Shown here: positions 9,001 to 42,115 of the stretch, piece by piece
How positions within the stretch are numbered: the first letter of the stretch is position 1
Layout: each line of letters starts with the position of its first letter
Assembly (NCBI GenBank): GCA_017881075.1
Contig: JADGRH010000001.1
Location: forward strand, 59,639 to 123,638
Length of the DNA: 64,000 nt
Origin: Minisyncoccota bacterium
GTDB taxonomy: Bacteria > Patescibacteriota > Minisyncoccia > Phycocordibacterales > CAJBRS01
Direction of reading: 5' to 3'
Notes under the pieces: model-generated
The model's input: only the letters and a program-made list of their open reading frames with translations
Database searches by the model: none
What the model was told of the DNA's origin: nothing
Program-made: the position numbers and the translations under genes

Positions 9001-9606
9001 GATCTTAGAGTAAGTACCTTAGAGAACCTGGGACCCCAAAGAGGGGGTGGAGGAGTCAGCACTGGAATCTTTGAAGATCTCCTTTCAACACTACAATCCT
9101 TTGGCACCGAAATCGTTGACGGAGTTTCTTATATGAAGAACTTCCTTGCTGAACATCTCACTACCCAGAACTTGACTATAAAAGGCAAAGATATTACGAA
9201 GACAGGATTCACTATTTATGATCGGGCTACCGGCGATCCTATCTGCGTCTATTTTGAGAACGGGATCCAAAAGACTTCCCCAGGCGAGTGTCCCGACAGC
9301 ACAGCTACTTCAACTCCTCCAACAGACACTACCTCCATTGTCTCAGACAACAACCCCCCAATAGATCCCCTCACCGGATCCAGCACTCCTCCGATCTCCG
9401 ATATCGGATCAAATCCTCCTCCAGACCAACCCCCTCCAACACCACCACCCGCCGACCCCACTCCGCCCTCCGATCCCACCTCCTTGATAGCGCCGAGCGC
9501 CCCAACATCACCACCAGCCCCTGATACGTCAGGATCGAATCCTTCTGATTCGACGTCCGCTCCCGCTGATCCGGGCTCGGCTCCTTCCAATGGGGGAGGC
9601 AATTAG
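1..9606 (+). CDS. Giant repetitive surface/fibre-like protein (5'-truncated at window edge; >3194 aa) with C-terminal phage tail-spike-type intramolecular chaperone (peptidase S74-like) domain and Pro/Thr-rich tail
   Basis: Frame 1 is open from nt 1 with no upstream stop, and the ORF-track start at 22 is GTG. The motif GNVGIGTT(T/A)PGxKL recurs about 18 times. Near the C-terminus, 'SDISLKENIQNI...LQGVTYFWKD...IGFIAQQVEPIVPQVV...YGNLTAVLASAIQEQQ' fits the chaperone-of-endosialidase / S74 consensus. The last ~100 aa are P/T/S-rich low complexity. Stop is TAG at 9604-9606. Confidence 0.8.
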   Translation, partial: ATSSIFRVNANGNVGIGTTTPGYKLHVKSASDIQFALDVDSGGRYTSQYFLNNGSTRAVNFWDETSNNLTIGTSHSGADLIFNRGLNAAAMTISGTTGNVGIGTTTPSTKLSVAGQGFFETSTETPVGSGTPGPGIRIGYLTSGDYGYITSSNSGVAAKNLVLQPGGTGNVGINQTVPLDLLHIAGDNIATIRLQNTISGGKTYQIGSAISGVSNAGFQIYNVTNSRSEMVIDTNGNVGIGTTAPGGKLSVSGGAAIGSSYATTAVSDGNLIVSGSLGIGTTTPGSKLDIWGNLNVATGTTPALFVNTATGNVGIGVINPGKPLDVTGDIRASGNLLAGGGNAYLFNGGVRLGNSSGEIDLSANDMIYGPNAGTTNHIFKIGGNEIARINSTGIGIGTTTPGAKLHALSTTEQLRLGYDASNYNSFTVGSTGSLTVAAVGTNPNITLTPGGTGYTILNGNVGIGTTAPGQKLDVAGNINVSTNSAYMYNGLNVITASTTLSNYFFGGSGNLTMTGNANTASGYQALYSNTTGTTNTASGFRALYSNTTGTYNTASGINALYSNTTGTRNTANGLGALYSNTTGGNNAGYGINSGYGLTTGNNNTLIGPSDSVVASYNQVTTGSNNISIGNNVAVASPTASNQLNIGNLIYGTGLNGTGATISGGNVGIGTIAPDKKLEVNLGTSDALRLTYNDSDGSAANYTDFNVSSVGSLTIAPTGTNPNITLTPGGTGYTILNGNVGIGTSTPTLPLVVNGKIMSYGNSTNQITMSPAGNGVDSYAHLQIFNTAGYGQGYLDFYTYPGQGLGTPTVRWRGVDLGSYTGGHVFSASAASQNGASTDVLFVGNTGATGVLTNHFGVGVLTNAPVSALDVNGGVSIGSYAAVNAAPSNGLIVSGNVGIGTTTPGFNLQVAGTGVSAAFGAAANNNGAGVAFLGSSTGKNFFIGNQYNIGGALEITPSTANGGSTFTTPVVTILSTGNVGIGTTAPGTKLEVVGTASSTGLQVNGNGAITGTISAPTFVATTNNIAFLSLKSLSSTIGVGVTNGDVLSFDWGGIYPKGYQFRTSATQGINIDSSGNVGIGTTAPGASLQVAGTGIWSSVYGFSAGGNAPLAVGTAVLRTGNDFRIQDDGSFKINQSGAAAFLTILNTGNVGIGTTAPREKLDVAGNITTDWADRFIGTEYQDGSTYRMGMKVVTSDRDLQIINKSAGENFSGISFHTGTGPTERMRIDKGGNVGIGTTNPGNKLVVSGAGYTYAEVDASSSSGTYSGGYRAYNDVGAQVLLDIYASSSVGTYLGQPLSNLVRLTDYSGSSGIAIGTYTNTPLTLGTNNSARLVINGAGNVGIGTTAPSAKLQVNVASGYANTWWSNDSVTTPFSAIYGAHVVGSFGQNYSTGGGADFAGFSHANNEVGVEFDGYVGGTSPTAPALLLAGWKSNGTTGASAMSGTDIIAQIAAGASPVVTVQANGNVGIGTTSPVSKLDVSVTSPGSTNFGLSVRDSTVTPTYASNADNLLTVRGAGSSVTTWKGRITAGGDNVEFLMGEYNSLAWLGAHNAALNAWTNIYINPDGGSNAYIGDSGGGVNNIPVPILAVINSTGNVGIGTTAPDVNLAIGSQLLGAQGLSGAVLNLGGSSSQMPGINIGQDATHAIEFYWIGNATPGSATAALETSGYLNPFAINGSKTTIQSAAGNVILATGGGNVGIGTTAPGGKLSVSGGAAIGSSYATTAVSDGNLIVSGSLGIGTTAPGSKIQAVGGYISTFDNTGYGPAFMQGASGVSYFGNTGTSRIAFGNNTNYERMTILDNGNVGIGTTTPGFLLTVAGTSNITGAAIFGSTLGVTGATTLSSTLGVTGQTTLANASSTNLTVSTNSYLGTVQSGTWNGTTIAVANGGTGQTTYTNGQLLIGNTTGNTLTKAALTGTTNQVVVTNSTGSITLSTPQDIATASTPTFASTTLSNFTLGSIPFFGSSGKLGQNNANFFWDGTNNRLGIGTSTPDTLLTVAGNGRFTGTLSASNLSGTNTGDVTLGAIAATPNANGASLSGQVLTLQPASTSFGGVVTTGTQSFTGDKTFTSNSLAALQVTGSNTGRTSITVQNTNASGNASFYFQNDRGSFNSYGGLLTGGSSDVGGTLFGLARADRTFLINDGTNALGLALGTLTAQPLTLGTNNLARVTILSGGNVGIGTTAPTSTLELYRGDNNIGPTLTLNNPTGNAGTAGSAIDFLGYSGASQPVTNRIKTIDDGAYGYHLAFLTKADSSGGALFEAMRIQGGTGNVGIATTTPGFPLTVTGASNFTGALNFNGAAGSSGNILQSNGSGSAPSWVSTTTLGTIAVNQGGTGQTTYTNGQLLIGNTTGNTLTKATLTGTANQVNVTNGAGSITLSTPQNIGTTSSPTFNSLNIANGSTYSGWIGNFGLGSDWVGFTADGAQSASKYAFEATASYGETVFNANGGGTLPFIDFRFSNGGVEPITRIYGSGGLYFGSVAGAADPGLQNLSIFSGKLGVGVLTASAKIHALSTTEQLRLGYDASNYNSFTVGSTGSLTVAAVGTNPNITLTPGGTGYTILNGNVGIGTTTPGAKLSVKGGGTTTGLNFQTTNSNNLPLVTILDSGNVGIGTTTPGNKLQINAALATASESLLRLSGGSTGFAGTNDAGTAYSLVFDGTAYSVGTGVVQRDGAKIEMAKEASWNEAGGGGGPLGALLFYTSAGSIASPKLTEKMRITSLGNVGIGTTAPDSKLTISSNTATLPSGAATLRIAEADTVQTSAVIDAFATNGLFNFRRADTTAASPSAVQSGENLGVFGAAGYGTSAYSGTRARVGFFADETWTNTANGTSIRFSTTLNGAATAGGTERMRIDNAGNVGIGTSTPDQALVVSGTARATNLLGGATTLSTDASGNIIRTPSDISLKENIQNIDSADALSQVLALQGVTYFWKDKARFGTAQEIGFIAQQVEPIVPQVVKSGGAYKSLNYGNLTAVLASAIQEQQKQITANASTTRANASSTASALSSLDLRVSTLENLGPQRGGGGVSTGIFEDLLSTLQSFGTEIVDGVSYMKNFLAEHLTTQNLTIKGKDITKTGFTIYDRATGDPICVYFENGIQKTSPGECPDSTATSTPPTDTTSIVSDNNPPIDPLTGSSTPPISDIGSNPPPDQPPPTPPPADPTPPSDPTSLIAPSAPTSPPAPDTSGSNPSDSTSAPADPGSAPSNGGGN
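1561..1800 (+). repeat. In-frame tandem repeat of a ~60-nt unit (about 4 copies), encoding NTASG(Y/F/I)xALYSNTTGTxNTASG, inside the giant gene
   Basis: 'caccgccagtggt...gcgctctatagcaacaccactggaacc' is visibly repeated at 1553-1612, 1613-1672, 1673-1732 and 1733-1790. Confidence 0.8.
9391..9412. repeat. REP-type palindrome TCCGATATCGGA (family 1), embedded in the 3' coding region of the giant gene (encodes PISDIGS)
   Basis: Perfect 12-nt palindrome tccgatatcgga preceded by the partial duplicate tccgatc. The same core recurs at 10438-10449 and 10520-10531. Confidence 0.7.
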
Positions 9607-22107: not shown

Positions 22108-22189
22108 AGCCGAGTTTCTGCAGATTTTTTTTATCTATAATTTATATTTCCTTTAATGTTTCTTCATAGTCGGTACTATAAAATATCTT

Positions 22190-22208
22190 GCAGAGGTCAG
22201 ACCTCTGC
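22190..22208. repeat. REP palindrome family 2 copy (central A variant) directly abutting the RAYT start codon
   Basis: gcagaggtcagacctctgc, followed 3 nt later by the RAYT ATG at 22212. Confidence 0.8.
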
Positions 22209-22211
22209 AAG

Positions 22212-22907
22212 ATGAGAAAAGAACCATTTAATGTCGGATCATACATTCATGTAATAAAAAGAGGCCATAGAAAGTCTCTCATTGTTCGGGATGAGAATGA
22301 CAGAAATCATTTTGAGCGAATCTTGTATTACCTGAATCATAAGAAATCATTGCCCGAACGTTGGTCTCAGATTTTAAGAGAAAAGAGAATTAAGAATTTT
22401 GATTTTCCTAAGGAGTGGGGAAAAAGAAAGCCTTTGGTAAAAATTGTAGCTTATGCTCTAATGCCGAACCATCTTCATCTATTTCTGAAAGAAATTGTTG
22501 AAGGAGGAGTAACGACTTTCATGAGAAAAATAGGCAATAGCATGACAGCTCATTTTAATCTCAGACATGAAGAATCTGGAACGCTTTTTCCAGGTGCCTA
22601 TCGGTCTAAAACAATTGAAGACGATGCTTATTTTCGTTACTGTGGAGTATATATCATGGTCAAAAATATTTTTGAGCTTTATCCTGGTGGACTCGAGCGA
22701 GCAAAAAAAGAATTTGAGATAGCATTTCAATGGGCTTTAAATTATAGATTCAGCAGTTTGCCGGAATATCTGAATATCAGGACTCAACCGATAATCGATA
22801 AGGAATTGTTAGGGGAACTCTTTTTCGGTCCTAAGGACTTCAAGGATTTTGCTAGAGATTGTATTTTAGGAAGGAAACCTGATTTTAATGAGATAAATCT
22901 AGAGTAA
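22212..22907 (+). CDS. REP-associated tyrosine transposase (RAYT, second distinct copy/family)
   Basis: HUH motif 'LMPNHLHLF', about 231 aa, bracketed by family-2 REP palindromes. The ORF-track start at 22188 lies inside the REP, so the second Met (22212) was chosen. Confidence 0.75.
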   Translation: MRKEPFNVGSYIHVIKRGHRKSLIVRDENDRNHFERILYYLNHKKSLPERWSQILREKRIKNFDFPKEWGKRKPLVKIVAYALMPNHLHLFLKEIVEGGVTTFMRKIGNSMTAHFNLRHEESGTLFPGAYRSKTIEDDAYFRYCGVYIMVKNIFELYPGGLERAKKEFEIAFQWALNYRFSSLPEYLNIRTQPIIDKELLGELFFGPKDFKDFARDCILGRKPDFNEINLE

Positions 22908-24320: not shown

Positions 24321-24698
24321 ATGATTATTGCTCTCTCATTGCTGATTGTCTCTTTTTTGGCCATGATGGGTATGGTTTATCTGAAACTGACCGAGACCAG
24401 AACTGGTAAGTCCTACCTCTTTTTCAATAAAAAAAGTGATCAGTTTGTGGAAAATAGTTATACTGGTGCAAAGAAATTCTTTCATCGCTGGAATTGGCGG
24501 ACCATCCAATTGCTTTACCACCTTGTTTTGGAGAAAATTGAGGATTTCTTTCTGAATATCTATCGATATACTAGAAAGAAGTTTGATAAACCGGTCAGTA
24601 TGGTAAAAGGACAAGGTGACCTTCCAACTGAAAAATCAGACAGCTCCTTTTTCTTGAAAAACATAGAGGAGCATAAAAATAATAATAAGCCGAAGTAG
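24321..24698 (+). CDS. Hypothetical small membrane protein
   Basis: One N-terminal TM helix and no recognisable domain. Its stop overlaps the tRNA 5' end. Confidence 0.35.
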   Translation: MIIALSLLIVSFLAMMGMVYLKLTETRTGKSYLFFNKKSDQFVENSYTGAKKFFHRWNWRTIQLLYHLVLEKIEDFFLNIYRYTRKKFDKPVSMVKGQGDLPTEKSDSSFFLKNIEEHKNNNKPK

Positions 24699-30488: not shown

Positions 30489-30638
30489 ATGAAACGACAA
30501 AATCCTATGAATAAGAAAAAACTCTTGCGGCAGGTAGATCACTTTACCCGCCCGCCACGGCTTGAGGGCAAGGCAAAAAATGCAGGAATGAACCCAATTC
30601 GCAAGAAGAAAAGAATTATTTATAAAGATAAAAAATGA
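30489..30638 (+). CDS. Candidate 49-aa highly basic small protein, translationally coupled (ATGA) to the VKOR gene
   Basis: ATG at 30489. Translation is MKRQNPMNKKKLLRQVDHFTRPPRLEGKAKNAGMNPIRKKKRIIYKDKK. Its stop overlaps the VKOR start. Too short for the ORF track. Confidence 0.35.
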   Translation: MKRQNPMNKKKLLRQVDHFTRPPRLEGKAKNAGMNPIRKKKRIIYKDKK

Positions 30639-31054
30639 ATAAAAAAATAATAATACTCTCAACGCTCGCCCTTGTTGGTTTTATCGATGCGGCATATCTT
30701 ACGATCCAACACTACGCGAACGCTATCCCACCCTGCACCATCCATGGTTGCGAGACGGTGCTCTCGAGTGCCTACTCGGTTGTTTTCGGTCTGCCGGTCG
30801 CTCTCCTCGGTGTTGCTTACTACTTTGTATTGTTAATTCTTTATTTCATTTATTTTCAAAAAAAGAATACCAGTCTGCTCATCTTTACTCTACGTCTATC
30901 AATCGTGGGCTTTCTGGCCGATCTCTGGTTTGTCTCGGCCCAAGCCTTTCTCATCCATGCGTGGTGTGTGTACTGCCTTTTGTCCGCTCTGATGTCGACT
31001 CTCATTTTTATCCTCTCGTATTGGGAACTTTTCCACAAAAAGAATTTGTTGTAA
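30635..31054 (+). CDS. Vitamin K epoxide reductase (VKOR) family membrane protein
   Basis: Loop cysteines 'CTIHGC' and active-site 'CVYC' in the last TM helix, with about 4 TM helices. 139 aa. Confidence 0.75.
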   Translation: MNKKIIILSTLALVGFIDAAYLTIQHYANAIPPCTIHGCETVLSSAYSVVFGLPVALLGVAYYFVLLILYFIYFQKKNTSLLIFTLRLSIVGFLADLWFVSAQAFLIHAWCVYCLLSALMSTLIFILSYWELFHKKNLL

Positions 31055-31098
31055 CATTTGAAAGAAATAGGCAGTTCAGACGTATATATAGGTACAAT

Positions 31099-31629
31099 AT
31101 GAAAAAATTCTTTACCTCACTTATCTTTGTGTTGATTTTTGCTGGCTATGGACTCCAGCAGCATTTTGGCAATGCATCTCAGATGGCTCCTATTGTCTCT
31201 GATATAACTCCCACAACACAACTTGTCGATACTGGTATCCAGACTAGCCTTACTCCTACACCGCCGCCGCCTCCCTCAACCAACAATCACACACCTACCC
31301 CAGTTCCTACCCCCACCCCCACACCACCACCAACGCCTAGAGGGCAATATATTGACGGTTCTTACACAGGGGGTGTAGCCGACGCCTATTACGGCTATGT
31401 GCAGGTACGAGTTACGGTGCGCGGTGGCAAAATGACGGACGTGGCTTTTCTTCAATATCCGAACGATCGGAACACCTCCCGTTACATAAATAGTCAGGCA
31501 ATGCCAATCCTTCGAAGCGAAGCGATCCAGGCTCAAAGTGCTCAAGTAGACACTGTCTCGGGAGCAAGCGCTACTAGTGGAGCTTTCCAGCAGTCGCTTG
31601 CCGATGCACTTTCGCAAGCCAGAGCCTAA
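31099..31629 (+). CDS. Secreted FMN-binding-domain protein (ApbE flavinylation substrate type)
   Basis: Signal peptide, PT-rich linker, then an FMN_bind-like domain ending 'AQVDTVSGASATSGAF', which carries the Dxx(S/T)GA(T/S) flavinylation motif. The ORF-track 5' extension (30748) overlaps VKOR and is rejected. Confidence 0.65.
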   Translation: MKKFFTSLIFVLIFAGYGLQQHFGNASQMAPIVSDITPTTQLVDTGIQTSLTPTPPPPPSTNNHTPTPVPTPTPTPPPTPRGQYIDGSYTGGVADAYYGYVQVRVTVRGGKMTDVAFLQYPNDRNTSRYINSQAMPILRSEAIQAQSAQVDTVSGASATSGAFQQSLADALSQARA

Positions 31630-31630
31630 T

Positions 31631-32377
31631 ATGAAGCAGAATCGTGACATTATGGGAATGCCAGTGGCTCTCGAGATTACTGACGCCATAGTGAAGCAAG
31701 AATACTTTGATAAAGTGTTTGATTATTTCGTGCACATTGATCAGAAATTCAGCACGTACAAGAATGAAAGTGAAATTTCTCGTATCAACCGAGGAGAGCT
31801 ATCTCCCGCCGAATATAGTGATGAAATGAAAATTGTTTTTGACCTATCGGAAGAAACCAAGAAAATGACGGGAGGATATTTTGATATACGAAAAGCAGAT
31901 GGCACTTATGATCCGTCGGGCCTAGTGAAGGGTTGGGCAATCAATAACGGCGCTCTTATTTTGAAAAATCTCGGCTGTAAAAATTTTTATGTTGATATTG
32001 GGGGAGATATTCAAGTGAATGGAAAGAATGGTCAGAGTGAGGAATGGAGCATCGGTATTCGCAACCCTTTCAATCGAGAGGAGATAATTAAAGTGATATA
32101 TCCGCGTGGCCAAGGAGTGGCTACCTCCGGTACTTATATTAGAGGAGACCACATCCTAGATCCGTTCTCCAAGAAAGCGGTTGAATCCGATATAATTAGT
32201 CTTACGGTCATAGGGCCGAATATTTATGAAGCGGACCGCTTTGCTACTGCTGCATTTGCCATGGGTTCAGAGGCAATTCAGTTTATAGAAAATCTAGAAG
32301 GCTTTGAAGGTTATGCTGTAAATAAAAATGGCATTGCCACAATGACAAGCGGATTTGAGCATTACACAAAATTATGA
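31631..32377 (+). CDS. apbE: ApbE-family FAD:protein FMN transferase
   Basis: 'MGMPVALEI' N-terminus and the overall ApbE pattern ('GGYFDIRKADGTYDPSGLVKGWA', 'GVATSGTYIRGDHILDP'). Immediately downstream of the FMN-binding substrate gene. Confidence 0.65.
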   Translation: MKQNRDIMGMPVALEITDAIVKQEYFDKVFDYFVHIDQKFSTYKNESEISRINRGELSPAEYSDEMKIVFDLSEETKKMTGGYFDIRKADGTYDPSGLVKGWAINNGALILKNLGCKNFYVDIGGDIQVNGKNGQSEEWSIGIRNPFNREEIIKVIYPRGQGVATSGTYIRGDHILDPFSKKAVESDIISLTVIGPNIYEADRFATAAFAMGSEAIQFIENLEGFEGYAVNKNGIATMTSGFEHYTKL

Positions 32378-33897
32378 TCAAAATTATTGATAATTTCCTG
32401 AATAAGATAACTATGTATCGTTTGGTGTTCTACGAGCTATTCTTTCTATTGTTTGTGGCCGGAGTGCTCGGCTATTTTGGAATGCTACCCTATAACCCTT
32501 TAGCCCTAGCTTTTTCCGTAGCTTTTATTTTCGCAATCTGTTGGCTGGTGAATAAAATCTTTGCTCAGATGTTTAACGTACCGTCAAATCCGGAGTCAGT
32601 TTGGATAACCGCTTTTATTTTGGCTCTTATTATTATGCCCACCAGCAGTTTTTTAGATATGCATTTTTTGCCGCTGGCATTCTGGGCATCGGCTTCTGCA
32701 ATCGCTTCTAAATATATCTTGGCCATACGGGGGAAACATCTCTTTAATCCGACCGCCATGGGTGTTGCTGTGACCAGTTTAGTCCTAGGCTTATCCGCCA
32801 ACTGGTGGATAGGCACTCCCATCATGATACCGTTCGTACTTCTCGGCGGATTATTGGTGGTGCGAAAAATCCATCGATTCGATTTAATGTGGGCCTTTAT
32901 CGGAACTTTTGTCGTCGGAATCGTCTTTTCTAATTTTGCCCGAGGGTCTGGTTTGATACACCTCTTGAGCCAATCTTTATTCTACGCACCGGCATTTTTC
33001 TTTGCCACGGTAATGCTCACCGAACCAGCCACCATGCCACCGACACGCGTACTACGTATTTTCTACGGAATGCTTGTCGGGCTCCTATTCTTGCCCAATT
33101 TTAATATTGCCGGTTTCTATTTCACTCCCGAGCTCGCTCTGATTGCTGGCAACCTGTTTTCATATATAGTCAGTCCAAAATATAAACTTATGCTGAGGCT
33201 TAAAAAAATCATTCGCTTGTCTCCCGATGTTTACGAGTTTGCTTTTGCCACAAACAGAACGATTTCATTTAAACCGGGACAATTTATGGAATGGACACTG
33301 GCGCACGAGCATGCCGACAGTCGAAGCGTGCGACGCTATTTCACTTTAGCTTCCTCTCCGACAGAAAGAGAAGTGAAAGTGGGAGTAAAGTTTTATGCCC
33401 CGGCGAGCACTTTCAAGAAAGCACTTATATCGATGGGTGAGGGAGAGTCCCTTGTAGCCTCACAGTTATCAGGTGATTTCACTTTGCCTAGAAATAAAAA
33501 GAAAAAGCTGGTATTTATTGCCGGGGGAATTGGTGTTACGCCATTCAGAAGTATGATTAAATATTTACTTGATAAGCGAGAGAGACGCTCCATAACTCTT
33601 TTGTATGCCAACAAAACTCCGGCTGATGTTGTTTACTCCAATATTTTTACCATGGCCGAACGTGATCTTGGGATAAAAACAATCTACGCCTTTACCGACA
33701 AAAATGCTCAGCTTCCTTATGGAGCGGTTTCTATTATTGATGCTGAGACGATTAGGCGAGAAGTACCTGATTATTTTGATCGGCTATTCTATATTTCCGG
33801 ACCGCAAGGGATGGTGACCGCTTTCAAAGAGACTTTGTTAGAAATGAATATTCCAAGATCTCAAATCAAAACGGATTATTTTCCCGGGTTTGCATAG
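32374..33897 (+). CDS. Membrane oxidoreductase: N-terminal polytopic TM domain fused to a C-terminal FNR-like FAD/NAD(P)-binding domain
   Basis: About 7 predicted TM helices in the first ~270 aa. Then 'RRYFTLASSP' (RxYS FAD motif), 'LVFIAGGIGVTPFRSM' (NAD(P) Rossmann) and a C-terminal 'YISGP' region. Confidence 0.6.
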   Translation: MIKIIDNFLNKITMYRLVFYELFFLLFVAGVLGYFGMLPYNPLALAFSVAFIFAICWLVNKIFAQMFNVPSNPESVWITAFILALIIMPTSSFLDMHFLPLAFWASASAIASKYILAIRGKHLFNPTAMGVAVTSLVLGLSANWWIGTPIMIPFVLLGGLLVVRKIHRFDLMWAFIGTFVVGIVFSNFARGSGLIHLLSQSLFYAPAFFFATVMLTEPATMPPTRVLRIFYGMLVGLLFLPNFNIAGFYFTPELALIAGNLFSYIVSPKYKLMLRLKKIIRLSPDVYEFAFATNRTISFKPGQFMEWTLAHEHADSRSVRRYFTLASSPTEREVKVGVKFYAPASTFKKALISMGEGESLVASQLSGDFTLPRNKKKKLVFIAGGIGVTPFRSMIKYLLDKRERRSITLLYANKTPADVVYSNIFTMAERDLGIKTIYAFTDKNAQLPYGAVSIIDAETIRREVPDYFDRLFYISGPQGMVTAFKETLLEMNIPRSQIKTDYFPGFA

Positions 33898-33968: not shown

Positions 33969-34682
33969 ATGAAAAACACAAATAAGAAGAGATTTTTACC
34001 GGTGATTCACGTTGAAAAACTCTACGAGACAGAAGAAAATGCCAAAATTGCTTTTGACAACGGCGCCGATGGCATCTTTCTGATTATTTACAACATTCAG
34101 ACTTATAAACTGCTCGAAATCTACGATCGAGTGCGGATTCTATATCCAGATCGCTACATCGGCCTTAACCTACTTGACCTCGGGGCCGGAAGCGCTTTGA
34201 GACAAATTCCAAGGACGGCTAACGCCTTGTGGGTTGATAGTCCCGCTTTGGTTGGCAGTCCTTCCAACTGGCCTTTTTGTAAGAAAGCTAGGGAGTTCTG
34301 GGAACGCCGCCAGCAATATCCAGATTGGGAAGGTGAATGCTTCGTGGGTGTCGCCTTCAAGCATCAACCGACAATTCCTATGGCTGAACTGGCTGCGGTC
34401 ACAAAGGCCTCGGCGCCATTTATGGATGTTGTTGTCACAAGTGGTAAGGCGACAGGAGTGCCGCCGATACCGAGGAAGCTGGAGATCATGCGAGAGGCAA
34501 TTGGGAATGAAAAACGTCTCGCTCAAGCAAGCGGCATCACACCCAAAAATGTCTTTGACTCCTTGCCGTTCATTGACGATTTTATTGCCAACACTGGTGT
34601 CAGCAGGAGTCCGACAGAGTTGGAGCCGCGTCTCGTTAGGGTGACAGGGGACATCATTCACAATTACTCCTGTAGAAATTAA
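33969..34682 (+). CDS. BtpA/SgcQ-family TIM-barrel protein (function unknown)
   Basis: Pattern 'GADGIFLI...VVVTSGKATG...ASGITPKNV' resembles the BtpA family. Identification is weak. Confidence 0.35.
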   Translation: MKNTNKKRFLPVIHVEKLYETEENAKIAFDNGADGIFLIIYNIQTYKLLEIYDRVRILYPDRYIGLNLLDLGAGSALRQIPRTANALWVDSPALVGSPSNWPFCKKAREFWERRQQYPDWEGECFVGVAFKHQPTIPMAELAAVTKASAPFMDVVVTSGKATGVPPIPRKLEIMREAIGNEKRLAQASGITPKNVFDSLPFIDDFIANTGVSRSPTELEPRLVRVTGDIIHNYSCRN

Positions 34683-35345: not shown

Positions 35346-35924
35346 ATGGATCCGACCGATCTCACACTCTCCGATGAAGAAGTAGCCCTGCTCATTCAAA
35401 AAGGAGATAAAGAAAAATTCAGTCTTTTAGTCAAACGCTATGAAGACAAACTGTTTCGATATGGACGCAGGTTTCTTTCCAGTCGCGAAAATATTGAGGA
35501 TATAGTTCAGGACGTCTTTGTCAGCACATTTCAAAATATTAATAATTTTGACTCATCGCTCCGATTTTCGTCCTGGATTTATCGAATTGCCCACAACGCT
35601 TTTGTTAACAGTCTGAAGAAAAATAGCAAAAGCCCTATTATTTATATCGATTTCGATACATTAATTTCGCATCCCGTATATGAAGAGCCTAAGGATTTTG
35701 AAAAAGAGCAGAAGGAAATGAAGGAAATGGTAGACAAAGGGTTGGAAAAACTTTCATCAAAATACAAAGAAGTGATCATCCTGCACTATTTGGAAGAAAT
35801 GAGCTATAAGGAAATATCGGATATTTTAAGAATACCAATGGGCACCGTCGGCATTCGTATTAAAAGAGCCAAGGAATCCTTAAGAGTAGCGTACGCCAAA
35901 ATGAATTTAAATTATGGAAAATAA
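35346..35924 (+). CDS. ECF-type RNA polymerase sigma factor
   Basis: Region 2 ('SWIYRIAHNAFVNSLKK') and region 4 ('YKEISDILRIPMGTVGIRIKRAKESLR') patterns. 192 aa. Confidence 0.75.
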   Translation: MDPTDLTLSDEEVALLIQKGDKEKFSLLVKRYEDKLFRYGRRFLSSRENIEDIVQDVFVSTFQNINNFDSSLRFSSWIYRIAHNAFVNSLKKNSKSPIIYIDFDTLISHPVYEEPKDFEKEQKEMKEMVDKGLEKLSSKYKEVIILHYLEEMSYKEISDILRIPMGTVGIRIKRAKESLRVAYAKMNLNYGK

Positions 35925-36648
35925 TCAAGACCAAAAACCAAATAAAATCCAGCAAATTCTGGAGAAGATAAAGAAAAATGAGATCACTCCTCATTCAAAG
36001 TTTTATTTCAAATTACGAATGACCTCGGTGATAATTGTGGCCGTGGCCGTCTTCCTTATCACCGCCCTTCTGCTCAGCTTCATTATTTTTAGTATGAAAA
36101 TAGGCGGTCAGTTTGCTTTGATCGGTTTCGGTCATCACGGCTGGGAAGTATTCCTGGTCACTTTTCCTTGGATCTTATTCTTTCTTGATCTTATTTTAAT
36201 GATTCTTCTCGGCTGGCTTTTAAGGACTTTCCGATTTGGATATAAGAGCCCGGCCCTTTATTTATTGGCCGGGCTTCTAGGCCTTACTATTTTAAGCGCG
36301 GTTGTATTTGAGGGCGAGACCTCGTTTCATAATCGTCTATTTCTCGAGGCGGAAAAGGATAATCTACCCTCACCTTTTGAAGAGCTATATGAACATGTTC
36401 ACCGCCCACCACCCTCAGGCCACGGCATATTTCGAGGAATGATTGCCTCCATTAGTGATGGCACTCTCGTAGTTAATATTGAGAGCCCGGATAGTACCTC
36501 AACCATGCCCTTCAAAGTCATAATCTCACCATCTCAAAATACCGATGCCTACCAAGTCGGTCAGTTGATCTTTATAGACGGCGTAATCATTAATGATCAG
36601 ATTCAGGCTGAAGGTATTCGCGAAGCCCCCGAAGTGCCGGGCGAATAA
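35914..36648 (+). CDS. Putative anti-sigma factor / membrane protein (overlaps the sigma gene by 11 nt)
   Basis: N-terminal cytoplasmic segment, then a TM helix and further hydrophobic segments. Assigned by genomic context only. Confidence 0.4.
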   Translation: MENNQDQKPNKIQQILEKIKKNEITPHSKFYFKLRMTSVIIVAVAVFLITALLLSFIIFSMKIGGQFALIGFGHHGWEVFLVTFPWILFFLDLILMILLGWLLRTFRFGYKSPALYLLAGLLGLTILSAVVFEGETSFHNRLFLEAEKDNLPSPFEELYEHVHRPPPSGHGIFRGMIASISDGTLVVNIESPDSTSTMPFKVIISPSQNTDAYQVGQLIFIDGVIINDQIQAEGIREAPEVPGE

Positions 36649-36751: not shown

Positions 36752-36792
36752 GACAGAATTCTATATTTAGTTAAGATACTTAACTAAATATG
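36752..36792 (+). promoter_or_regulatory. Candidate promoter (TTGACA) plus perfect 12-bp inverted-repeat operator overlapping the MarR start
   Basis: ttgaca at 36752-36757. tatttagttaag-ata-cttaactaaata at 36766-36792 is a perfect palindrome ending at the MarR ATG (36790). Confidence 0.55.
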
Positions 36793-37215
36793 GATACCCG
36801 AAAACAGGCTACTTTGGCCATTATGGAGAGCATGCAAGTCGTTAGACGACGTCTAATGGTGCGTAAAACTATTACTGACATTACCTTTTCACAATGGGCG
36901 GTTTTGTCTGCGGTCATGAAGATGAAACGTGGTGGTATAAAAGAGATCGCTACAGAGCTCGATATTACCCCAAGCGCCGCTACTCAACTAGTTGATGAAT
37001 TGGTTCTGAAAGGGTATCTCTTAAGGGAGGGCAGTGACCGCGACAGGCGGGCCATTTTCATTAAATTATCTCCAAAACAAGAGAAAAACCTCAAAGATCT
37101 TAAAGCTAAACGGCTAAAGAAATTTAACATCATGTTTCGCGTCTTAGATGATGAGGAGTTGCGAACATATGCCGTTCTGAACAAGAAAATTGCAGTCGGC
37201 CTTTTAAACAGATAA
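36790..37215 (+). CDS. MarR-family transcriptional regulator
   Basis: Winged-helix region 'IKEIATELDITPSAATQLVDELVLKGYLLREGSDRDRRAIFIKLS'. Confidence 0.8.
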   Translation: MDTRKQATLAIMESMQVVRRRLMVRKTITDITFSQWAVLSAVMKMKRGGIKEIATELDITPSAATQLVDELVLKGYLLREGSDRDRRAIFIKLSPKQEKNLKDLKAKRLKKFNIMFRVLDDEELRTYAVLNKKIAVGLLNR

Positions 37216-37235
37216 ATAAACATTAATTTTAATAT

Positions 37236-38897
37236 ATGAAAAATTTTTTTAGCGGAATCAAAATCTGGGTGGTCAAGCATAAAGTCATCAGTGCCATTAT
37301 AGTCATTGTTATTTTGGGCGGTGGCTATTGGAGTTATACGAAATTTTTTGTCGGTACACCAGCAACCCAATATGTTTTGGGGCAAGTTACCAAAGGAACG
37401 CTTATCTCATCTATTGACGGTACCGGCCAAGTCTCCGCCACTAATCAAATAGATTTAAAACCAAAAGTTTCCGCTAAGATTACCTCCATTTCCGTTAAAG
37501 CCGGACAGGAAGTGAAGCAAGGGGCGGTCATTGCTAGTCTAGATGCAGGGGATGCCTCAAAGGCTGTACGTGACGCAGAACTCAGTCTTCAAAGCGCCCA
37601 ATTATCTCTGGCTAAGCAAAATCAATCTTTGTCTCAGACTGATGTCAGGAAGGCTTATGACGATGGTTTTAATGCGGTAGGGAACTCATTCCTTGATTTG
37701 CCCGGAATGCTTACAAAATTAGAAGACCTGGTATATAACGGAAAGGGCTATCTTTCCAACAACTCAATTAATGCTTTAGGACAGGTTGCCCAAACATATA
37801 GTCAAACGGCTGTCGCTTCTTATTTCAAAACCAAGAAGAGCTACGACCAAAATTTAGTAGACTATAAACTCACTTCTCGCGATTCAGCGACCAGTACCAT
37901 TGAATCCTTAATTTCAGAAACCTATAATACCATTCAAGATTTATCGGAAGCCATTAAGGATGCTAATACCTTAGTGGATTATTTAAATACACAGTATGAT
38001 ACCCAGAATAAACCTCCCCAACTTATGATTGATCAGAGTAGTTTAAACACTTTTACTAATACCACCAACAGTCACGCAACTGCTCTTATAAATTCAAAAT
38101 CCAGTATTCAAAGTGCCACAGATGCCGTAGGCAACAATGGCCTAGATACTCAATCATCGGAGTTGACAGTGGCAGTGCGTCAAAATGCTCTGAACGATGC
38201 TCGAGAAAAATTGGCCGACTACACTATTCGAGCACCCTTTAGTGGCATTATTGGTAATGTTGTTGCCTCTCTTTCCGATGACGTTGGCCCATCTTCAGTA
38301 ATCGCCACTTTAGTGACAAAACAAAAAATTGCCGTTATTCAATTAAATGAAGTAGACGAGGCGAAGATCGCTTTGGGTAATAAAGCCACCTTAACCTTTG
38401 ACGCTCTTCCGGATCTCTCCTTGACTGGCACGGTGGAAGAAATTGAGAATGTTGGAGTGCTTTCACAAGGAGTAGTGACCTACAATATTAAAATTACATT
38501 TGACACTCAAGACGACAGGGTTAAACCAACCATGACTGTTTCAGCTTCCATCATCACTGATTCCAAAGAAGGAGTATTAATGGTTCCAAGTTCGGCTGTT
38601 AAGACTGATGCCAACGGAGGGAAATACGTTCAGGAAATTGCCGGAGCATCCGCCGGAGCCGGAAATGTTTCGACTAAGACTGCTCCACAATCGGTTGCAG
38701 TGGAAGTTGGCAACTCCAATGATACAGATACGGAAATAGTTTCCGGATTGAATGAGGGCGATACGATTGTCATTAGATCAATTGCCTCTAGCGCCACAAC
38801 CGCAGTCGCTTCTGCGCCCAGCCTCTTTGGCGGCAGTACCGGTGGAAACAGAGGAGGAACCACCGGAGCAACCACCAGAGCTCTTCGTTCAAATTAA
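37236..38897 (+). CDS. Periplasmic adaptor / membrane fusion protein (MacA/HlyD family) with Gly-rich C-terminal tail
   Basis: N-terminal TM, lipoyl-like 'ISVKAGQEVKQGAVIASLD', coiled coil, 'IRAPFSGIIGNV' beta-barrel motif. Confidence 0.7.
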   Translation: MKNFFSGIKIWVVKHKVISAIIVIVILGGGYWSYTKFFVGTPATQYVLGQVTKGTLISSIDGTGQVSATNQIDLKPKVSAKITSISVKAGQEVKQGAVIASLDAGDASKAVRDAELSLQSAQLSLAKQNQSLSQTDVRKAYDDGFNAVGNSFLDLPGMLTKLEDLVYNGKGYLSNNSINALGQVAQTYSQTAVASYFKTKKSYDQNLVDYKLTSRDSATSTIESLISETYNTIQDLSEAIKDANTLVDYLNTQYDTQNKPPQLMIDQSSLNTFTNTTNSHATALINSKSSIQSATDAVGNNGLDTQSSELTVAVRQNALNDAREKLADYTIRAPFSGIIGNVVASLSDDVGPSSVIATLVTKQKIAVIQLNEVDEAKIALGNKATLTFDALPDLSLTGTVEEIENVGVLSQGVVTYNIKITFDTQDDRVKPTMTVSASIITDSKEGVLMVPSSAVKTDANGGKYVQEIAGASAGAGNVSTKTAPQSVAVEVGNSNDTDTEIVSGLNEGDTIVIRSIASSATTAVASAPSLFGGSTGGNRGGTTGATTRALRSN

Positions 38898-38900
38898 ATA

Positions 38901-39605
38901 ATGATTGAATGCAAAGACATCACTAAAATCTACAAAAACGGTGACAACGAAACGGTTGCTCTGAAAGATGTCTCTTTATCTATTAATGATGGTGAATTCG
39001 TGGCGATCATGGGACCGTCAGGATCCGGCAAATCAACCCTAATGCATATTTTAGGAGCTCTTGATACACCCACTTCCGGCACTTATTTTCTGGATGGCGA
39101 AGATGTATCTAAACTTTCTGACGATGAATTGGCCGATATTAGAGCCAAAAAAATCGGCTTTGTTTTTCAAACTTTTAATTTACTTTCCCGAGCAACAGTG
39201 ATGAGAAATGTAATGTTGCCGTTAGTCTACTCCAATGTGGATGAGGCGGCGCGGAAGGAAAGGAGCGCCGCCGCTCTTCGGTCGGCAGGTCTTCCTGAAG
39301 ATCGTTGGCAACATCGGTCCAATCAACTCTCCGGTGGCCAGATCCAACGAGTAGCCATCGCCAGAGCTTTGGTTAATGACCCATCCGTAATTATGGCCGA
39401 TGAGCCAACCGGAAATCTTGATACTAAGACCGGTCAGATTGTCCTAGGCACATTTGAGAGACTGAACAAGGAGCACGGGCGAACTATTGTTCTCATCACT
39501 CACGAAGTAGAAGTGGCAGAATATGCTGATCGCATCATTTATATCAGGGATGGAATGATCACTGAAGATAAGAAAAGCCATAAGAAGCGAAAAGCACATA
39601 TATGA
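38901..39605 (+). CDS. ABC transporter ATP-binding protein (MacB/LolD-type)
   Basis: Walker A 'GPSGSGKST', signature '[15 protein letters not shown]', Walker B '[12 protein letters not shown]'. Confidence 0.9.
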
Positions 39606-40813
39606 CCATAAGAGATCTATTTAACGAAACTTCTTCCGCCTTGCTTAGCAATAAAGTCAGATCGTCTTTGACCATGCTCGGTATTGTTATTGGTATTGCT
39701 TCAGTCATTGCTATGCTCGCTATCGGTAATGGAGCTAAGGTTCAAATCCAATCAAGCATTGAAGGTCTAGGGTCAAATCTTTTAACTATTCTGCCTGGAG
39801 TGGTTCAGCCGGGTCGTGGCATTGTCTCTAGTGGTCGTGGCGCCGCTCAGACCCTGAAGACAGACGATATTGCCGTCATTGCGTCTGTTGATGGTATTAG
39901 CGCTATCTCTCCAGAGAACTCTCGTCGCTTCCAGATAGTGTCTCAAGTCGGTAATAATACCAATACTACTGTCACAGGAGGGCTCTCTGCCTATGCCACT
40001 ATTCATAATCTAGTAATATCAGAAGGTACATTTATCACCGATGAGTCGGAACGAAGCATCCGCCGCCAAGCCGTACTGGGCGCTACTGTCGCCACAGACC
40101 TCTTTGGTGATGTGGATCCTCTTGGCAAGACTGTTCGAGTAAACAATGTCCTCTTCACGGTTATTGGAATATTGCAGAAAAAAGGTGGGGTTGGTTTTTC
40201 CGGTCCGGATGATATGGTCATTGTGCCGCTCTCGGCCATGCAAAAAATTCTAACCGGGGATGATTATTTCTCCACTATTACTGTTAGTGTCGCCGACAAA
40301 AATAATACCAATAATATTCGTGACGAGATAACTTCTGCGCTGATGGCGAAACATCGCGTAGCTGAAGCCGACTTTTCTATTATCTCTCAAGAAGATATCT
40401 TGGGAGCACTCTCTCAAGTAGTAAATACCTTCACTCTATTTCTTGCTTCAATTGCCGGTATTTCTCTATTGGTGGGGGGTATCGGTATTATGAATATGAT
40501 GCTTACTACAGTTACAGAAAGAACCAGGGAGATTGGTTTAAGAAAGGCCGTAGGAGCAAAGAGCAAGGATATCAACAATCAATTTCTGACTGAGGCCATC
40601 TTGCTTACTTTTGTCGGAGGAGTGGTCGGAGTAATTCTCGGTTGGGTTGTGGCTTTTGGTGTATCATCTACTGGGATAGTAAATGCCCAAATCAGCCTTT
40701 TCTCCGTAATTTTGGCTTTCGGTGTCTCTGCCGTCATCGGTATCGCCTTCGGATATTATCCAGCCAGACGTGCGGCCAATCTTAATCCAATTGAAGCATT
40801 GAGGTATGAATAA
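39602..40813 (+). CDS. ABC transporter permease (MacB-type periplasmic domain + FtsX domain)
   Basis: N-terminal TM, large periplasmic domain, C-terminal 3-TM FtsX-like region ('GGIGIMNMMLTTVTERTREIGLRKAVGA'). Confidence 0.8.
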   Translation: MTIRDLFNETSSALLSNKVRSSLTMLGIVIGIASVIAMLAIGNGAKVQIQSSIEGLGSNLLTILPGVVQPGRGIVSSGRGAAQTLKTDDIAVIASVDGISAISPENSRRFQIVSQVGNNTNTTVTGGLSAYATIHNLVISEGTFITDESERSIRRQAVLGATVATDLFGDVDPLGKTVRVNNVLFTVIGILQKKGGVGFSGPDDMVIVPLSAMQKILTGDDYFSTITVSVADKNNTNNIRDEITSALMAKHRVAEADFSIISQEDILGALSQVVNTFTLFLASIAGISLLVGGIGIMNMMLTTVTERTREIGLRKAVGAKSKDINNQFLTEAILLTFVGGVVGVILGWVVAFGVSSTGIVNAQISLFSVILAFGVSAVIGIAFGYYPARRAANLNPIEALRYE

Positions 40814-40854
40814 CAGAGCTATAATGTTCAAAATTATTAATAAAAATTTATAAA

Positions 40855-41292
40855 ATGAATAAAAATAAATCAATAGGGTTCATAATAATCGGGTTAGTAA
40901 TTGCTGCCGGCCTCTTTTATGGCGGGCTGAAATATGGAGAAGCTCATGCACAGCCTGTGGCGGGAGCGTTCGCTCGTGGAGCAGGGGGAGCTGGTGCCAA
41001 TTTTGCCGGCCGGCAGACCGCAGGTGGCGGAGCACGGGCTGGTGCGAACGGCGGCCTGGTTCTAGGTCAGATCTTAAATAAGGATAGCCAGAGTATTACT
41101 ATCGGTCTCTCGGGAGGTGGTTCAAAAATCGTTTTTCTGGCCACTTCTACACCCATAACGAAATCAGTATCAGGATCTCGGAATGATCTTCAAACAGGAA
41201 CAACAGTTTCGGTTATCGGCAGTGCTAATTCAGACGGTAGTGTCACTGCACAATCAATTCAAATTAGAACAGCTACTTCAACACCAAGATAA
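40855..41292 (+). CDS. Hypothetical secreted Gly/Ala-rich protein
   Basis: Signal-anchor, G/A-rich low-complexity region, then a small beta-rich C-terminal region. Confidence 0.4.
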   Translation: MNKNKSIGFIIIGLVIAAGLFYGGLKYGEAHAQPVAGAFARGAGGAGANFAGRQTAGGGARAGANGGLVLGQILNKDSQSITIGLSGGGSKIVFLATSTPITKSVSGSRNDLQTGTTVSVIGSANSDGSVTAQSIQIRTATSTPR

Positions 41293-42115
41293 TTAACGAA
41301 AGAAGTCCGGCCAGGATGCAGTAAATGGCAAAAGGTTTAAGAGTGTGAGTTTTAAAATATTTAGTCAGGAATCGAATGGAAAAGTAGGCAGCTATGGCGG
41401 CCGATATAAAACCAGCAAGAATTGGACTATACACAGTTTGATCGGCCTGTATTAATTGCGGCAATTTTAATACGGCGGCAGCCAATATAATTGGTGTTGC
41501 CAGCAGAAAAGAAAAGCGGGCGGCGGCCTCGTGATCAAGGCCAGAAAGGAGACCTCCGCCGAGGCTCGCTCCGGTTCGGGAAAAACCGGGCAAAAGTGCT
41601 ATGGCCTCTGAAAGACCGATTCCCAAAGTATTTTTCCAGGAAAGTTTGGCGATTTCCTCGTCCGGCCGACTACCCTCTATTTTTCTATGCCTGATTTTTT
41701 CCATCAGAAATAGCATCAGGCCGTTCAAAATCAGAAAGATGGCAATAATGAAGGAAGAAGCAAAGAGGCTTCTGAATTGCTTTTCAAAAAGCAATCCTAA
41801 AATACCGGCTGGAATAGTAGCGACGATGATAAACCAGGAAAGTTTCTCATAAGTATCCGTAATTTTTCTCTTTCCAATTGAACGAAAAAATCCTCGAATA
41901 ATCAAGAGCCAGTCTTTATAGAAAAAGACCAATAGAACTAAGGCGGTAGCCAGATGAGTAGCCACTAAGAAAATGAGGAAAAAGTTATTACTCTCATTGA
42001 TTGGCCAATTTAAAATTGCCGGCAGAAGGACACCATGCCCAAGACTGGAGATTGGAAAAAGTTCTGTCACCCCCTGAACCAACCCCAAAATTATTGCTTG
42101 AGTAAAGCTAATCAC
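41273..42115 (-). CDS. uppP: Undecaprenyl-diphosphatase (BacA/UppP)
   Basis: 'QGVTELFPISSLGHGVL' and 'SRTGASL' conserved BacA motifs. Polytopic membrane protein. Confidence 0.85.
   Translation of the reverse strand: MISFTQAIILGLVQGVTELFPISSLGHGVLLPAILNWPINESNNFFLIFLVATHLATALVLLVFFYKDWLLIIRGFFRSIGKRKITDTYEKLSWFIIVATIPAGILGLLFEKQFRSLFASSFIIAIFLILNGLMLFLMEKIRHRKIEGSRPDEEIAKLSWKNTLGIGLSEAIALLPGFSRTGASLGGGLLSGLDHEAAARFSFLLATPIILAAAVLKLPQLIQADQTVYSPILAGFISAAIAAYFSIRFLTKYFKTHTLKPFAIYCILAGLLSLIILVLK

Follow-up and report, generated by a model that had tools for sequence, protein, structure and literature searches.

What does a run of five closely spaced genes, ending in a reductase whose membrane domain could not at first be placed, do in the genome of a Minisyncoccota bacterium (Patescibacteriota)? 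The run occupies positions 30489-33897 of a 64,000-nucleotide stretch of contig JADGRH010000001.1 (assembly GCA_017881075.1, positions 59,639 to 123,638), hereafter the window. A sequence-only reading had taken all five genes for one module leading electrons from cytoplasmic NAD(P)H to an extracytosolic flavoprotein. We propose, at a probability of roughly 0.7, that the last three genes (31099-33897) specify a flavin-based complex of the NQR/RNF-like type, made of two subunits and moving electrons across the membrane, and the enzyme that matures it, that the upstream VKOR gene is a bystander, and that the first open reading frame (ORF), of 49 amino acids, is non-functional. The features of the run are:

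30489..30638, + strand: 49-amino-acid Lys/Arg-rich ORF filling the spacer between gyrB and the VKOR gene; probably not a conserved gene, and outside the system
30635..31054, + strand: VKOR-family membrane thiol oxidoreductase, 139 amino acids (PF07884); a neighbour gene, not a conserved operon member
31099..31629, + strand: subunit with an FMN_bind (flavin mononucleotide-binding) domain, homologous to NqrC/RnfG, 176 amino acids (PF04205, E 8e-8)
31549..31569, + strand: DTVSGAS flavinylation motif, read from the sequence
31631..32377, + strand: compact ApbE flavin adenine dinucleotide (FAD):protein FMN transferase, 248 amino acids (PF02424, E 6e-41)
32374..33897, + strand: 507-amino-acid fusion protein with NAD_binding_1, holding the motifs RRYFTLASSP and GGIGVTPF
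32374..33174, + strand: predicted NqrB/RnfD-like 10-helix membrane domain, residues 1-267 of the fusion protein
33175..33897, + strand: FNR-like FAD/NAD(P)H-binding domain, residues 268-507 of the fusion protein

Gene starts were fixed by reading the DNA of the window, and domain calls are from Pfam. That reading and the ORF list of the window agree on five plus-strand ORFs within 30489-33897, joined in part by coupled junctions, as had been described. An ATGA overlap joins the 49-amino-acid ORF to the VKOR gene, 44 nt separate the latter from the FMN_bind gene, a single nucleotide lies between the FMN_bind and ApbE genes, and a second ATGA overlap (4 nt) joins ApbE to the fusion gene. Four of the five genes (VKOR, FMN_bind, ApbE and the fusion protein) are real. 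We found no second copy of ApbE or FMN_bind in the window; a scan for riboswitches and other RNA elements near the operon gave nothing but tRNA-Thr at 24689, and scans for promoters and terminators gave counts no higher than the chance level.

The fusion protein carries most of the argument. Its NAD_binding_1 match (PF00175, E 2.4e-12), together with the two motifs, bears out the FNR-like domain that had been proposed; FAD_binding_6 matches below threshold, as does PF08030, weakly and within the NAD-binding region. NCBIfam matches cover residues 273-503, and profile matches were obtained to NqrF and to flavohaemoglobin reductase domains (E ~1e-15 to 1e-16). The long start of the protein is probably the real one, because in the homologue alignment the invariant positions D6, L9, N10 and T13 lie in the 13 residues upstream of Met14.

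The N-terminal membrane domain, left unplaced by the sequence-only reading, can now be classified: on profile and model evidence it is a shortened NqrB/RnfD homologue of ten predicted helices, and not a member of an unrelated transporter family. NQR2_RnfD_RnfE matches residues 145-240 weakly (E 1.2e-4). PF03116 is the sole Pfam family matched, by 18 of 20 family members, and when a profile of the domain was compared with the PDB, RnfD alone was matched (E 7e-4), with the TEPxTxPP segment of the domain aligned with the TDPVTSP region of RnfD. The AlphaFold2 model has a mean predicted local distance difference test score (pLDDT) of 85.7 and a predicted template modelling score (pTM) of 0.76 for the whole protein, with a pLDDT of 84.2 for residues 1-272, and the fold of the membrane domain is that of NqrB/RnfD. 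A membrane domain of the ferric-reductase/NOX type was also considered and is ruled out by this fold and by the lack of any match to PF01794.

A single protein thus joins an N-terminal NqrB/RnfD-homologous membrane domain to a C-terminal PF00175 domain, the combination by which the NQR/RNF-like class of flavinylation-associated systems is recognized (Meheust et al. 2021, eLife, PMC8238504; Huang et al. 2024, mSystems, PMC11334425), and the FMN_bind and ApbE genes stand directly upstream, within the five-gene clustering used for that class. In canonical NqrB/RnfD a threonine in the sequence SGAT carries covalent FMN; this threonine is missing from the membrane domain in the window. The flavinylation motif [ST]G[AS][ST] occurs neither in the window fusion protein nor in any of the 29 homologues aligned with it (0/29), and the stricter form D..[ST]G[AS][ST] is absent from all locus fusion proteins in which it was sought (92/92). 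Charged or polar residues are invariant inside the membrane domain (E74, K113, E217, E253 and N260).

Topology and export signals were judged from hydropathy and charge, with modelled helices for the fusion protein. Within the membrane domain, loops on the N-terminal (inside) side hold a mean of 10.6 Lys+Arg versus 0.2 in the opposite loops; the fusion protein is therefore predicted to be N-in/C-in, with its FNR-like domain in the cytoplasm. The FMN_bind protein (33.2 bits to PF04205, cut-off 22) begins with MKK and a 16-residue hydrophobic segment, residues 1-20 forming an N-terminal membrane anchor, and continues through a 44-residue Pro/Thr-rich linker (residues 37-80, 31207-31338) into the FMN_bind domain (residues 97-172, 31387-31614). 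Across phyla the anchor is kept as MKKxxLSxFVxxxFxxY, with lipoboxes in the actinobacterial versions, and by flanking charge 53 of 57 FMN_bind homologues are N-in/C-out. Charge hence puts the FNR-like domain inside and the FMN_bind domain outside, on opposite sides of the membrane as the earlier account required. DTVSGAS (residues 151-157) fits D-x-x-[ST]-G-A-[ST], and phosphoester-linked FMN is predicted to sit on Ser157 (31567-31569). Nearly all FMN_bind homologues have [ST]G[AS][ST], and the strict form D..[ST]GA[ST], where matched, begins ~26 residues from the C-terminus. The proposal of an FMN_bind protein with an ApbE target motif is upheld by the Pfam match and the motif, and the anchor and the charge bias suggest that its domain is exported.

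The ApbE flavin transferase is likewise correctly named (141 bits to PF02424, cut-off 25.6), and it looks active because it retains the motifs ATSG, HILDP (HxxDP) and EAD, which align with the catalytic, Mg- and FAD-binding motifs of E. coli ApbE (4xgw). ApbEs of the usual kind are lipoproteins that are exported. That of the window begins with MKQNRDIMGMP, only seven residues ahead of a conserved MG[MT] motif, and we found no signal peptide or lipobox; its frame opens only at 31577, without a hydrophobic segment. Essentially all full-length copies among 87 operon-linked ApbE ORFs, in every phylum, start in the same way (MKxTRxxMGMPxTVE). Wherever its N-terminus is present, ApbE is thus signal-less in every phylum, whereas its FMN_bind partner has a conserved anchor or lipobox.

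With an ApbE that has no export signal and a substrate domain that is predicted to lie outside, the maturation step as usually drawn is topologically unexplained. The earlier picture of a secreted protein flavinylated by ApbE therefore holds for the target motif and the enzyme, and is incomplete in having overlooked the absent export signal. The class-defining papers do not discuss the missing ApbE signal peptide (PMC8238504, PMC11334425), and the 2021 survey asked for just one signal peptide per cluster (PMC8238504). Flavinylation may precede export, which would make FAD export needless; a second, exported ApbE may be encoded elsewhere in the genome; or the FMN_bind domain may face the cytoplasm. 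That the operon ApbE is truly cytoplasmic, either flavinylating the C-terminal motif of FMN_bind before it crosses the membrane or serving the complex as a cytoplasmic subunit, we regard as unlikely. If true, it would mean a new maturation route for extracytosolic flavoproteins without an FAD exporter, would suit the minimal genomes of Patescibacteria, and would explain why signal-peptide screens find flavinylation under-represented in the candidate phyla radiation.

Conservation of gene order draws the boundary of the system. We collected related loci from genomes and metagenomes (numbered with the prefix L) and scored 106 of them for gene order. The order FMN_bind-ApbE-NqrB/FNR is kept in ~80 of the 106, that is, in nearly every locus with enough upstream sequence, and these loci range over Patescibacteria, Chloroflexota (including Ktedonobacteria), Alphaproteobacteria (Mesorhizobium, Kaistia), Spirochaetota and Actinobacteria (Microbacteriaceae). 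Two variants without ApbE were seen: in L111 (5368-7641) NqrB/FNR comes straight after FMN_bind, and VIT1 and a sigma factor lie upstream, while in L026 (4955-7515) two FMN_bind genes stand in tandem. Relatives of the fusion protein number in the thousands; the best 120 are 54-100% identical, and those that are named belong to Paceibacterota, Parcubacteria, Kaiserbacteria and related groups. With each GTDB species represented by one genome, a relative is encoded in at least 472 stretches, and the N-terminal domain profile matches 587 clusters at 50% identity (E <=1e-30). The family is larger than the 127 clusters published (PMC8238504, PMC11334425).

VKOR does not belong to this conserved unit. 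Its identity is secure: it matches PF07884 at E 5e-25 (88.6 bits, cut-off 27.5), and C34, C39, C111 and C114, comprising the loop cysteine pair and the CXXC, are invariant among 15 homologues, so that by sequence the enzyme appears intact. Its closest homologues are extended at the N-terminus by 12-24 residues that it does not have. Linkage was assessed by two rounds of hidden Markov model (HMM) scanning over the 106 loci and by inspecting the neighbourhoods of VKOR homologues. Only three of the 106 (L027, L047 and L084) have a VKOR gene within 6 kb of the operon, and in none is VKOR adjacent to FMN_bind on its upstream side. The genes of the closest VKOR homologues (59-64% identity) each overlap one for a DsbA-like protein, with no flavin genes nearby, DsbA adjoining close homologues in L107, L109 and L110; this pairing fits the documented adjacency of VKOR and MdbA in the candidate phyla radiation (PMC6744442). 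The genes upstream of the reductase's closest relatives also differ, with an HI0933-like flavoprotein in L112 and a sigma/anti-sigma pair in L001 and L111. In L047 (5977-8731) DsbA and VKOR come immediately after an NqrB/FNR gene that has neither FMN_bind nor ApbE upstream, a second adjacency of reductase and VKOR in another arrangement, and in L027 VKOR lies one gene downstream of NqrB/FNR. A weak association of VKOR with the operon is possible, far from a module. We looked for a DsbA/MdbA partner across the whole window and found none, beside VKOR or elsewhere. The naming of VKOR thus stands and its place in the module does not.

The 49-amino-acid ORF fares worse. Eighteen of its 49 residues are Lys or Arg, it has no Pfam match, it forms a singleton cluster, and tblastn against 110 related loci gave no match (best E 0.86). 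It is housed in an A-rich 158-bp spacer, shuffles of which contain an ORF of at least 49 amino acids in 1.3% of cases, which is unusual and not decisive. As a remnant of DsbA or an N-terminal extension of VKOR it shows no similarity, and its frame differs from that of VKOR. Most likely it is a functional part of nothing. The basic peptide is accordingly not confirmed as a gene, and with it and VKOR the five-gene module falls; the earlier account gets the outline right for three genes but reaches too far in taking in the remaining two.

For those three genes, the domains and topology make a route from NAD(P)H to an extracytosolic flavoprotein the best reading, VKOR and the peptide standing outside it. 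Steps one to four below are drawn from homology and topology. NAD(P)H would reduce FAD in the cytoplasmic FNR-like domain of the fusion protein; electrons would pass to a non-covalently bound flavin within the fused NqrB/RnfD-like 10-helix domain, and from there to FMN held covalently on Ser157 of the membrane-anchored, outward-facing FMN_bind subunit; and the Ser157 flavin would reduce an extracytosolic acceptor, for which neighbouring genes in other genomes point mostly to metal handling (VIT1, NRAMP, P-type ATPase) or envelope stress. ApbE would attach the FMN, with FAD as its substrate. VKOR would be an ordinary disulfide-bond-forming enzyme that lies beside the operon by a chance of this genome. 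The scheme agrees with published proposals for the class, in which the flavin held covalently by the outer subunit visits the site where the membrane subunit binds its flavin non-covalently (PMC11334425) and electrons flow one way, from NAD(P)H to the outside (PMC8238504, PMC11334425).

Several points weigh against this reading. PF03116 scores 22-24 bits for the fusion protein, under the Pfam gathering threshold of 27.7. An export signal was found in none of the operon-linked ApbEs whose N-terminus is present, and the substrate domain is predicted to be outside. VKOR lies within ~1 kb of NqrB/FNR in two other genomes (L047 and L027), slightly above chance expectation. Finally, we found no experimental characterization of any member of the NQR/RNF-like class in the literature.

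Three other explanations have to be set beside it. The integrated five-gene module would have VKOR, and perhaps the peptide, working in the flavin route: in a cell without quinones, for example, the flavin complex could swap electrons with VKOR, which would tie NAD(P)H to thiol-disulfide chemistry outside the cytoplasm. The shared strand, the tight spacing with only 44 nt between VKOR and FMN_bind, the VKOR or DsbA-VKOR genes that follow NqrB/FNR immediately in L047 and at a distance of one gene in L027, and the failure to find a DsbA partner in the window all fit such a coupling. It is nevertheless very unlikely, given that VKOR is near the operon in so few loci and in the window's arrangement in none, that L001 and L112 have other genes upstream, that the closest VKOR homologues pair with DsbA at a distance from flavin genes, that VKOR-MdbA adjacency is already documented in the candidate phyla radiation (PMC6744442), and that the peptide has no homologue.

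The ApbE problem gives rise to another explanation, in which FMN_bind is flavinylated in the cytoplasm before export or is kept on the cytoplasmic face, where it would relay FNR electrons into the membrane domain and on to a membrane or external acceptor. It would account for an ApbE that, in five phyla and 87 homologous ORFs, is signal-less in every copy with its N-terminus present, and that is stoichiometrically coupled to its neighbours through overlapping or abutting start and stop codons. NqrC and RnfG domains, homologous to FMN_bind, are however extracytosolic, and the N-in/C-out bias in 53 of 57 homologues and the actinobacterial lipoprotein signals argue for the same orientation here. 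The published AlphaFold-Multimer model likewise docks the FMN_bind subunit on the outer face (PMC11334425). On the other side, ApbE modifies a 7-residue tag and needs no folded domain, and cytoplasmic ApbEs acting on cytoplasmic targets exist (PMC12052999). All told, we think this arrangement quite improbable. We give the least credence to a minimal redox-driven ion pump, in which the NqrB/RnfD-like domain would keep the ion translocation proposed for NqrB and NAD(P)H oxidation would build a gradient without a respiratory chain. The NqrB/RnfD fold and the invariant E74, K113, E217, E253 and N260 would suit a pump. In NQR and RNF, however, it is NqrD/E and RnfA/E that carry the redox-coupled gating centre, and these are not in the conserved operon; the pump is pure inference. 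The two-subunit complex with an outward-facing FMN_bind domain remains our preferred reading.

The surroundings of the operon bear on its regulation and its possible acceptor. The neighbouring features in the window are:

35346-35924, + strand: ECF-type sigma factor (Sigma70_r2 and r4_2 domains)
35914-36648, + strand: anti-sigma-like membrane protein, overlapping the sigma gene
36790-42115, downstream of the operon: run of MarR, HlyD, ABC ATPase, MacB/FtsX permease, DUF5666 and BacA

The sigma/anti-sigma pair is a candidate regulator of the operon because it recurs beside it in related genomes. Sigma homologues adjoin the operon in L001, L002, L006, L019, L051, L082, L089, L102 and L111, and anti-sigma-like homologues in L001, L051, L082 and L089; the sigma cases in L082, L089 and L102 and the anti-sigma-like cases in L082 and L089 were added by all-vs-all clustering. 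According to the gene tables, the pair lies directly upstream of FMN_bind in L001 and L111.

For other genomes we counted the genes that recur no more than 3.5 kb from the operon. Among them are two-component systems (a kinase in 18 loci, a regulator in 16) and MacB/FtsX ABC permeases (15/106); MFS transporters were found in 8 loci, HlyD in 7/106, and ECF sigma factors in 7, with the anti-sigma-like membrane protein in 4. Metal transporters are also present: a P-type ATPase in five loci (L022, L031, L040, L065, L069), NRAMP in four (L019, L065, L069, L097), and VIT1 in four (L031, L044, L050, L082) plus L111, consistent with the iron-assimilation idea of the 2021 paper (PMC8238504). The neighbours fit metal reduction or the handling of envelope redox and stress, and prove neither. 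The 20 flanking genes that we scanned contain no member of the Rnf or Nqr families.

Three further observations concern the window itself. Directly downstream of the operon, a 237-amino-acid ORF (33969-34682) matches nothing but a BtpA-like family, below threshold, and the related loci hold no homologue of it. A giant plus-strand ORF of at least 3201 codons (1-9606) runs off the start of the window, and a weak match to an IS200-like Y1 transposase (22188-22907, E 3.6e-5) lies between a release-factor gene and rpsB.

The general view of Patescibacteria is that little redox metabolism can be recognised in them. A compact electron exit from NAD(P)H could help them to recycle cofactors, reduce metals or interact with a host. 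Prediction of the class dates from 2021 and a model of it from 2024, and the locus in the window is one more typical member that brings no new principle. What we add is that VKOR and the small ORF are not to be counted in the system, that the family is larger by our estimate and has the phylum range given above, and that a dedicated ApbE without a signal, family-wide, is a concrete and testable gap in the accepted model. The localization of ApbE might be the sole element likely to surprise a specialist.

How, then, does the locus compare with known systems? The conduits of NOX, FRE and MsrQ reductases are di-haem six-helix domains (PF01794). These enzymes resemble the window protein in that an FNR-like dehydrogenase domain in the cytoplasm is joined to a conduit for electrons through the membrane, and differ from it in the PF01794 domain, for which Pfam gave no match in the window protein. 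The VKOR-MdbA/DsbA systems for oxidative folding in Actinobacteria and the candidate phyla radiation (PMC6744442) have the same two cysteine pairs as the window VKOR, which is 59-69% identical to VKORs of the candidate phyla radiation whose genes overlap DsbA, and which by contrast has no DsbA/MdbA neighbour. The cytoplasmic ApbE of Klebsiella pneumoniae is alike in having no signal peptide, but it serves a soluble, cytoplasmic fumarate reductase, whereas here the only canonical target motif sits in an exported or anchored protein (PMC12052999).

In the flavin-based extracellular electron transfer of Listeria (Ndh2, EetA/B, PplA, FmnB), as in the proposed window system, NADH in the cytoplasm is connected to an extracytosolic FMN_bind protein that ApbE flavinylates, and both hosts are single-membrane bacteria. 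The Listeria route, as published (PMC9973259), runs through a type II NADH dehydrogenase and the quinone pool, its FmnB is a lipoprotein that is exported, and an ECF transporter carries FAD out of the cell; it differs from the window operon in its quinone-pool route, its exported ApbE and its ECF FAD exporter. From Na+-NQR and RNF the conserved operon (~80 loci) differs in having three genes only, without NqrA/D/E or RnfA/B/C/E. Its NqrB-like domain lacks covalent FMN, no quinone or ferredoxin partner is evident, and the FNR-like domain has no 2Fe-2S domain and is fused directly to the membrane domain.

The match with the NQR/RNF-like class is the closest. That class is reported mainly from Actinobacteria and the candidate phyla radiation (PMC8238504, PMC11334425), and the two-subunit complex from Ktedonobacter modelled by Huang et al. 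2024 also has a membrane domain from which the threonine is missing (PMC11334425). ApbE-flavinylated systems were rightly said to be known in general; the three-gene system, with the membrane domain that could not be placed, is itself already published as this class. Shared with it are an NqrB/RnfD-like domain fused to PF00175, the clustering with an NqrC/RnfG-like FMN_bind gene and ApbE, and a membrane domain without the flavinylation threonine. We see no essential difference, the window adding an upstream VKOR, which is not conserved, and the 44-residue Pro/Thr linker. By domain content and gene order, the three-gene core is a typical member of the published NQR/RNF-like class.

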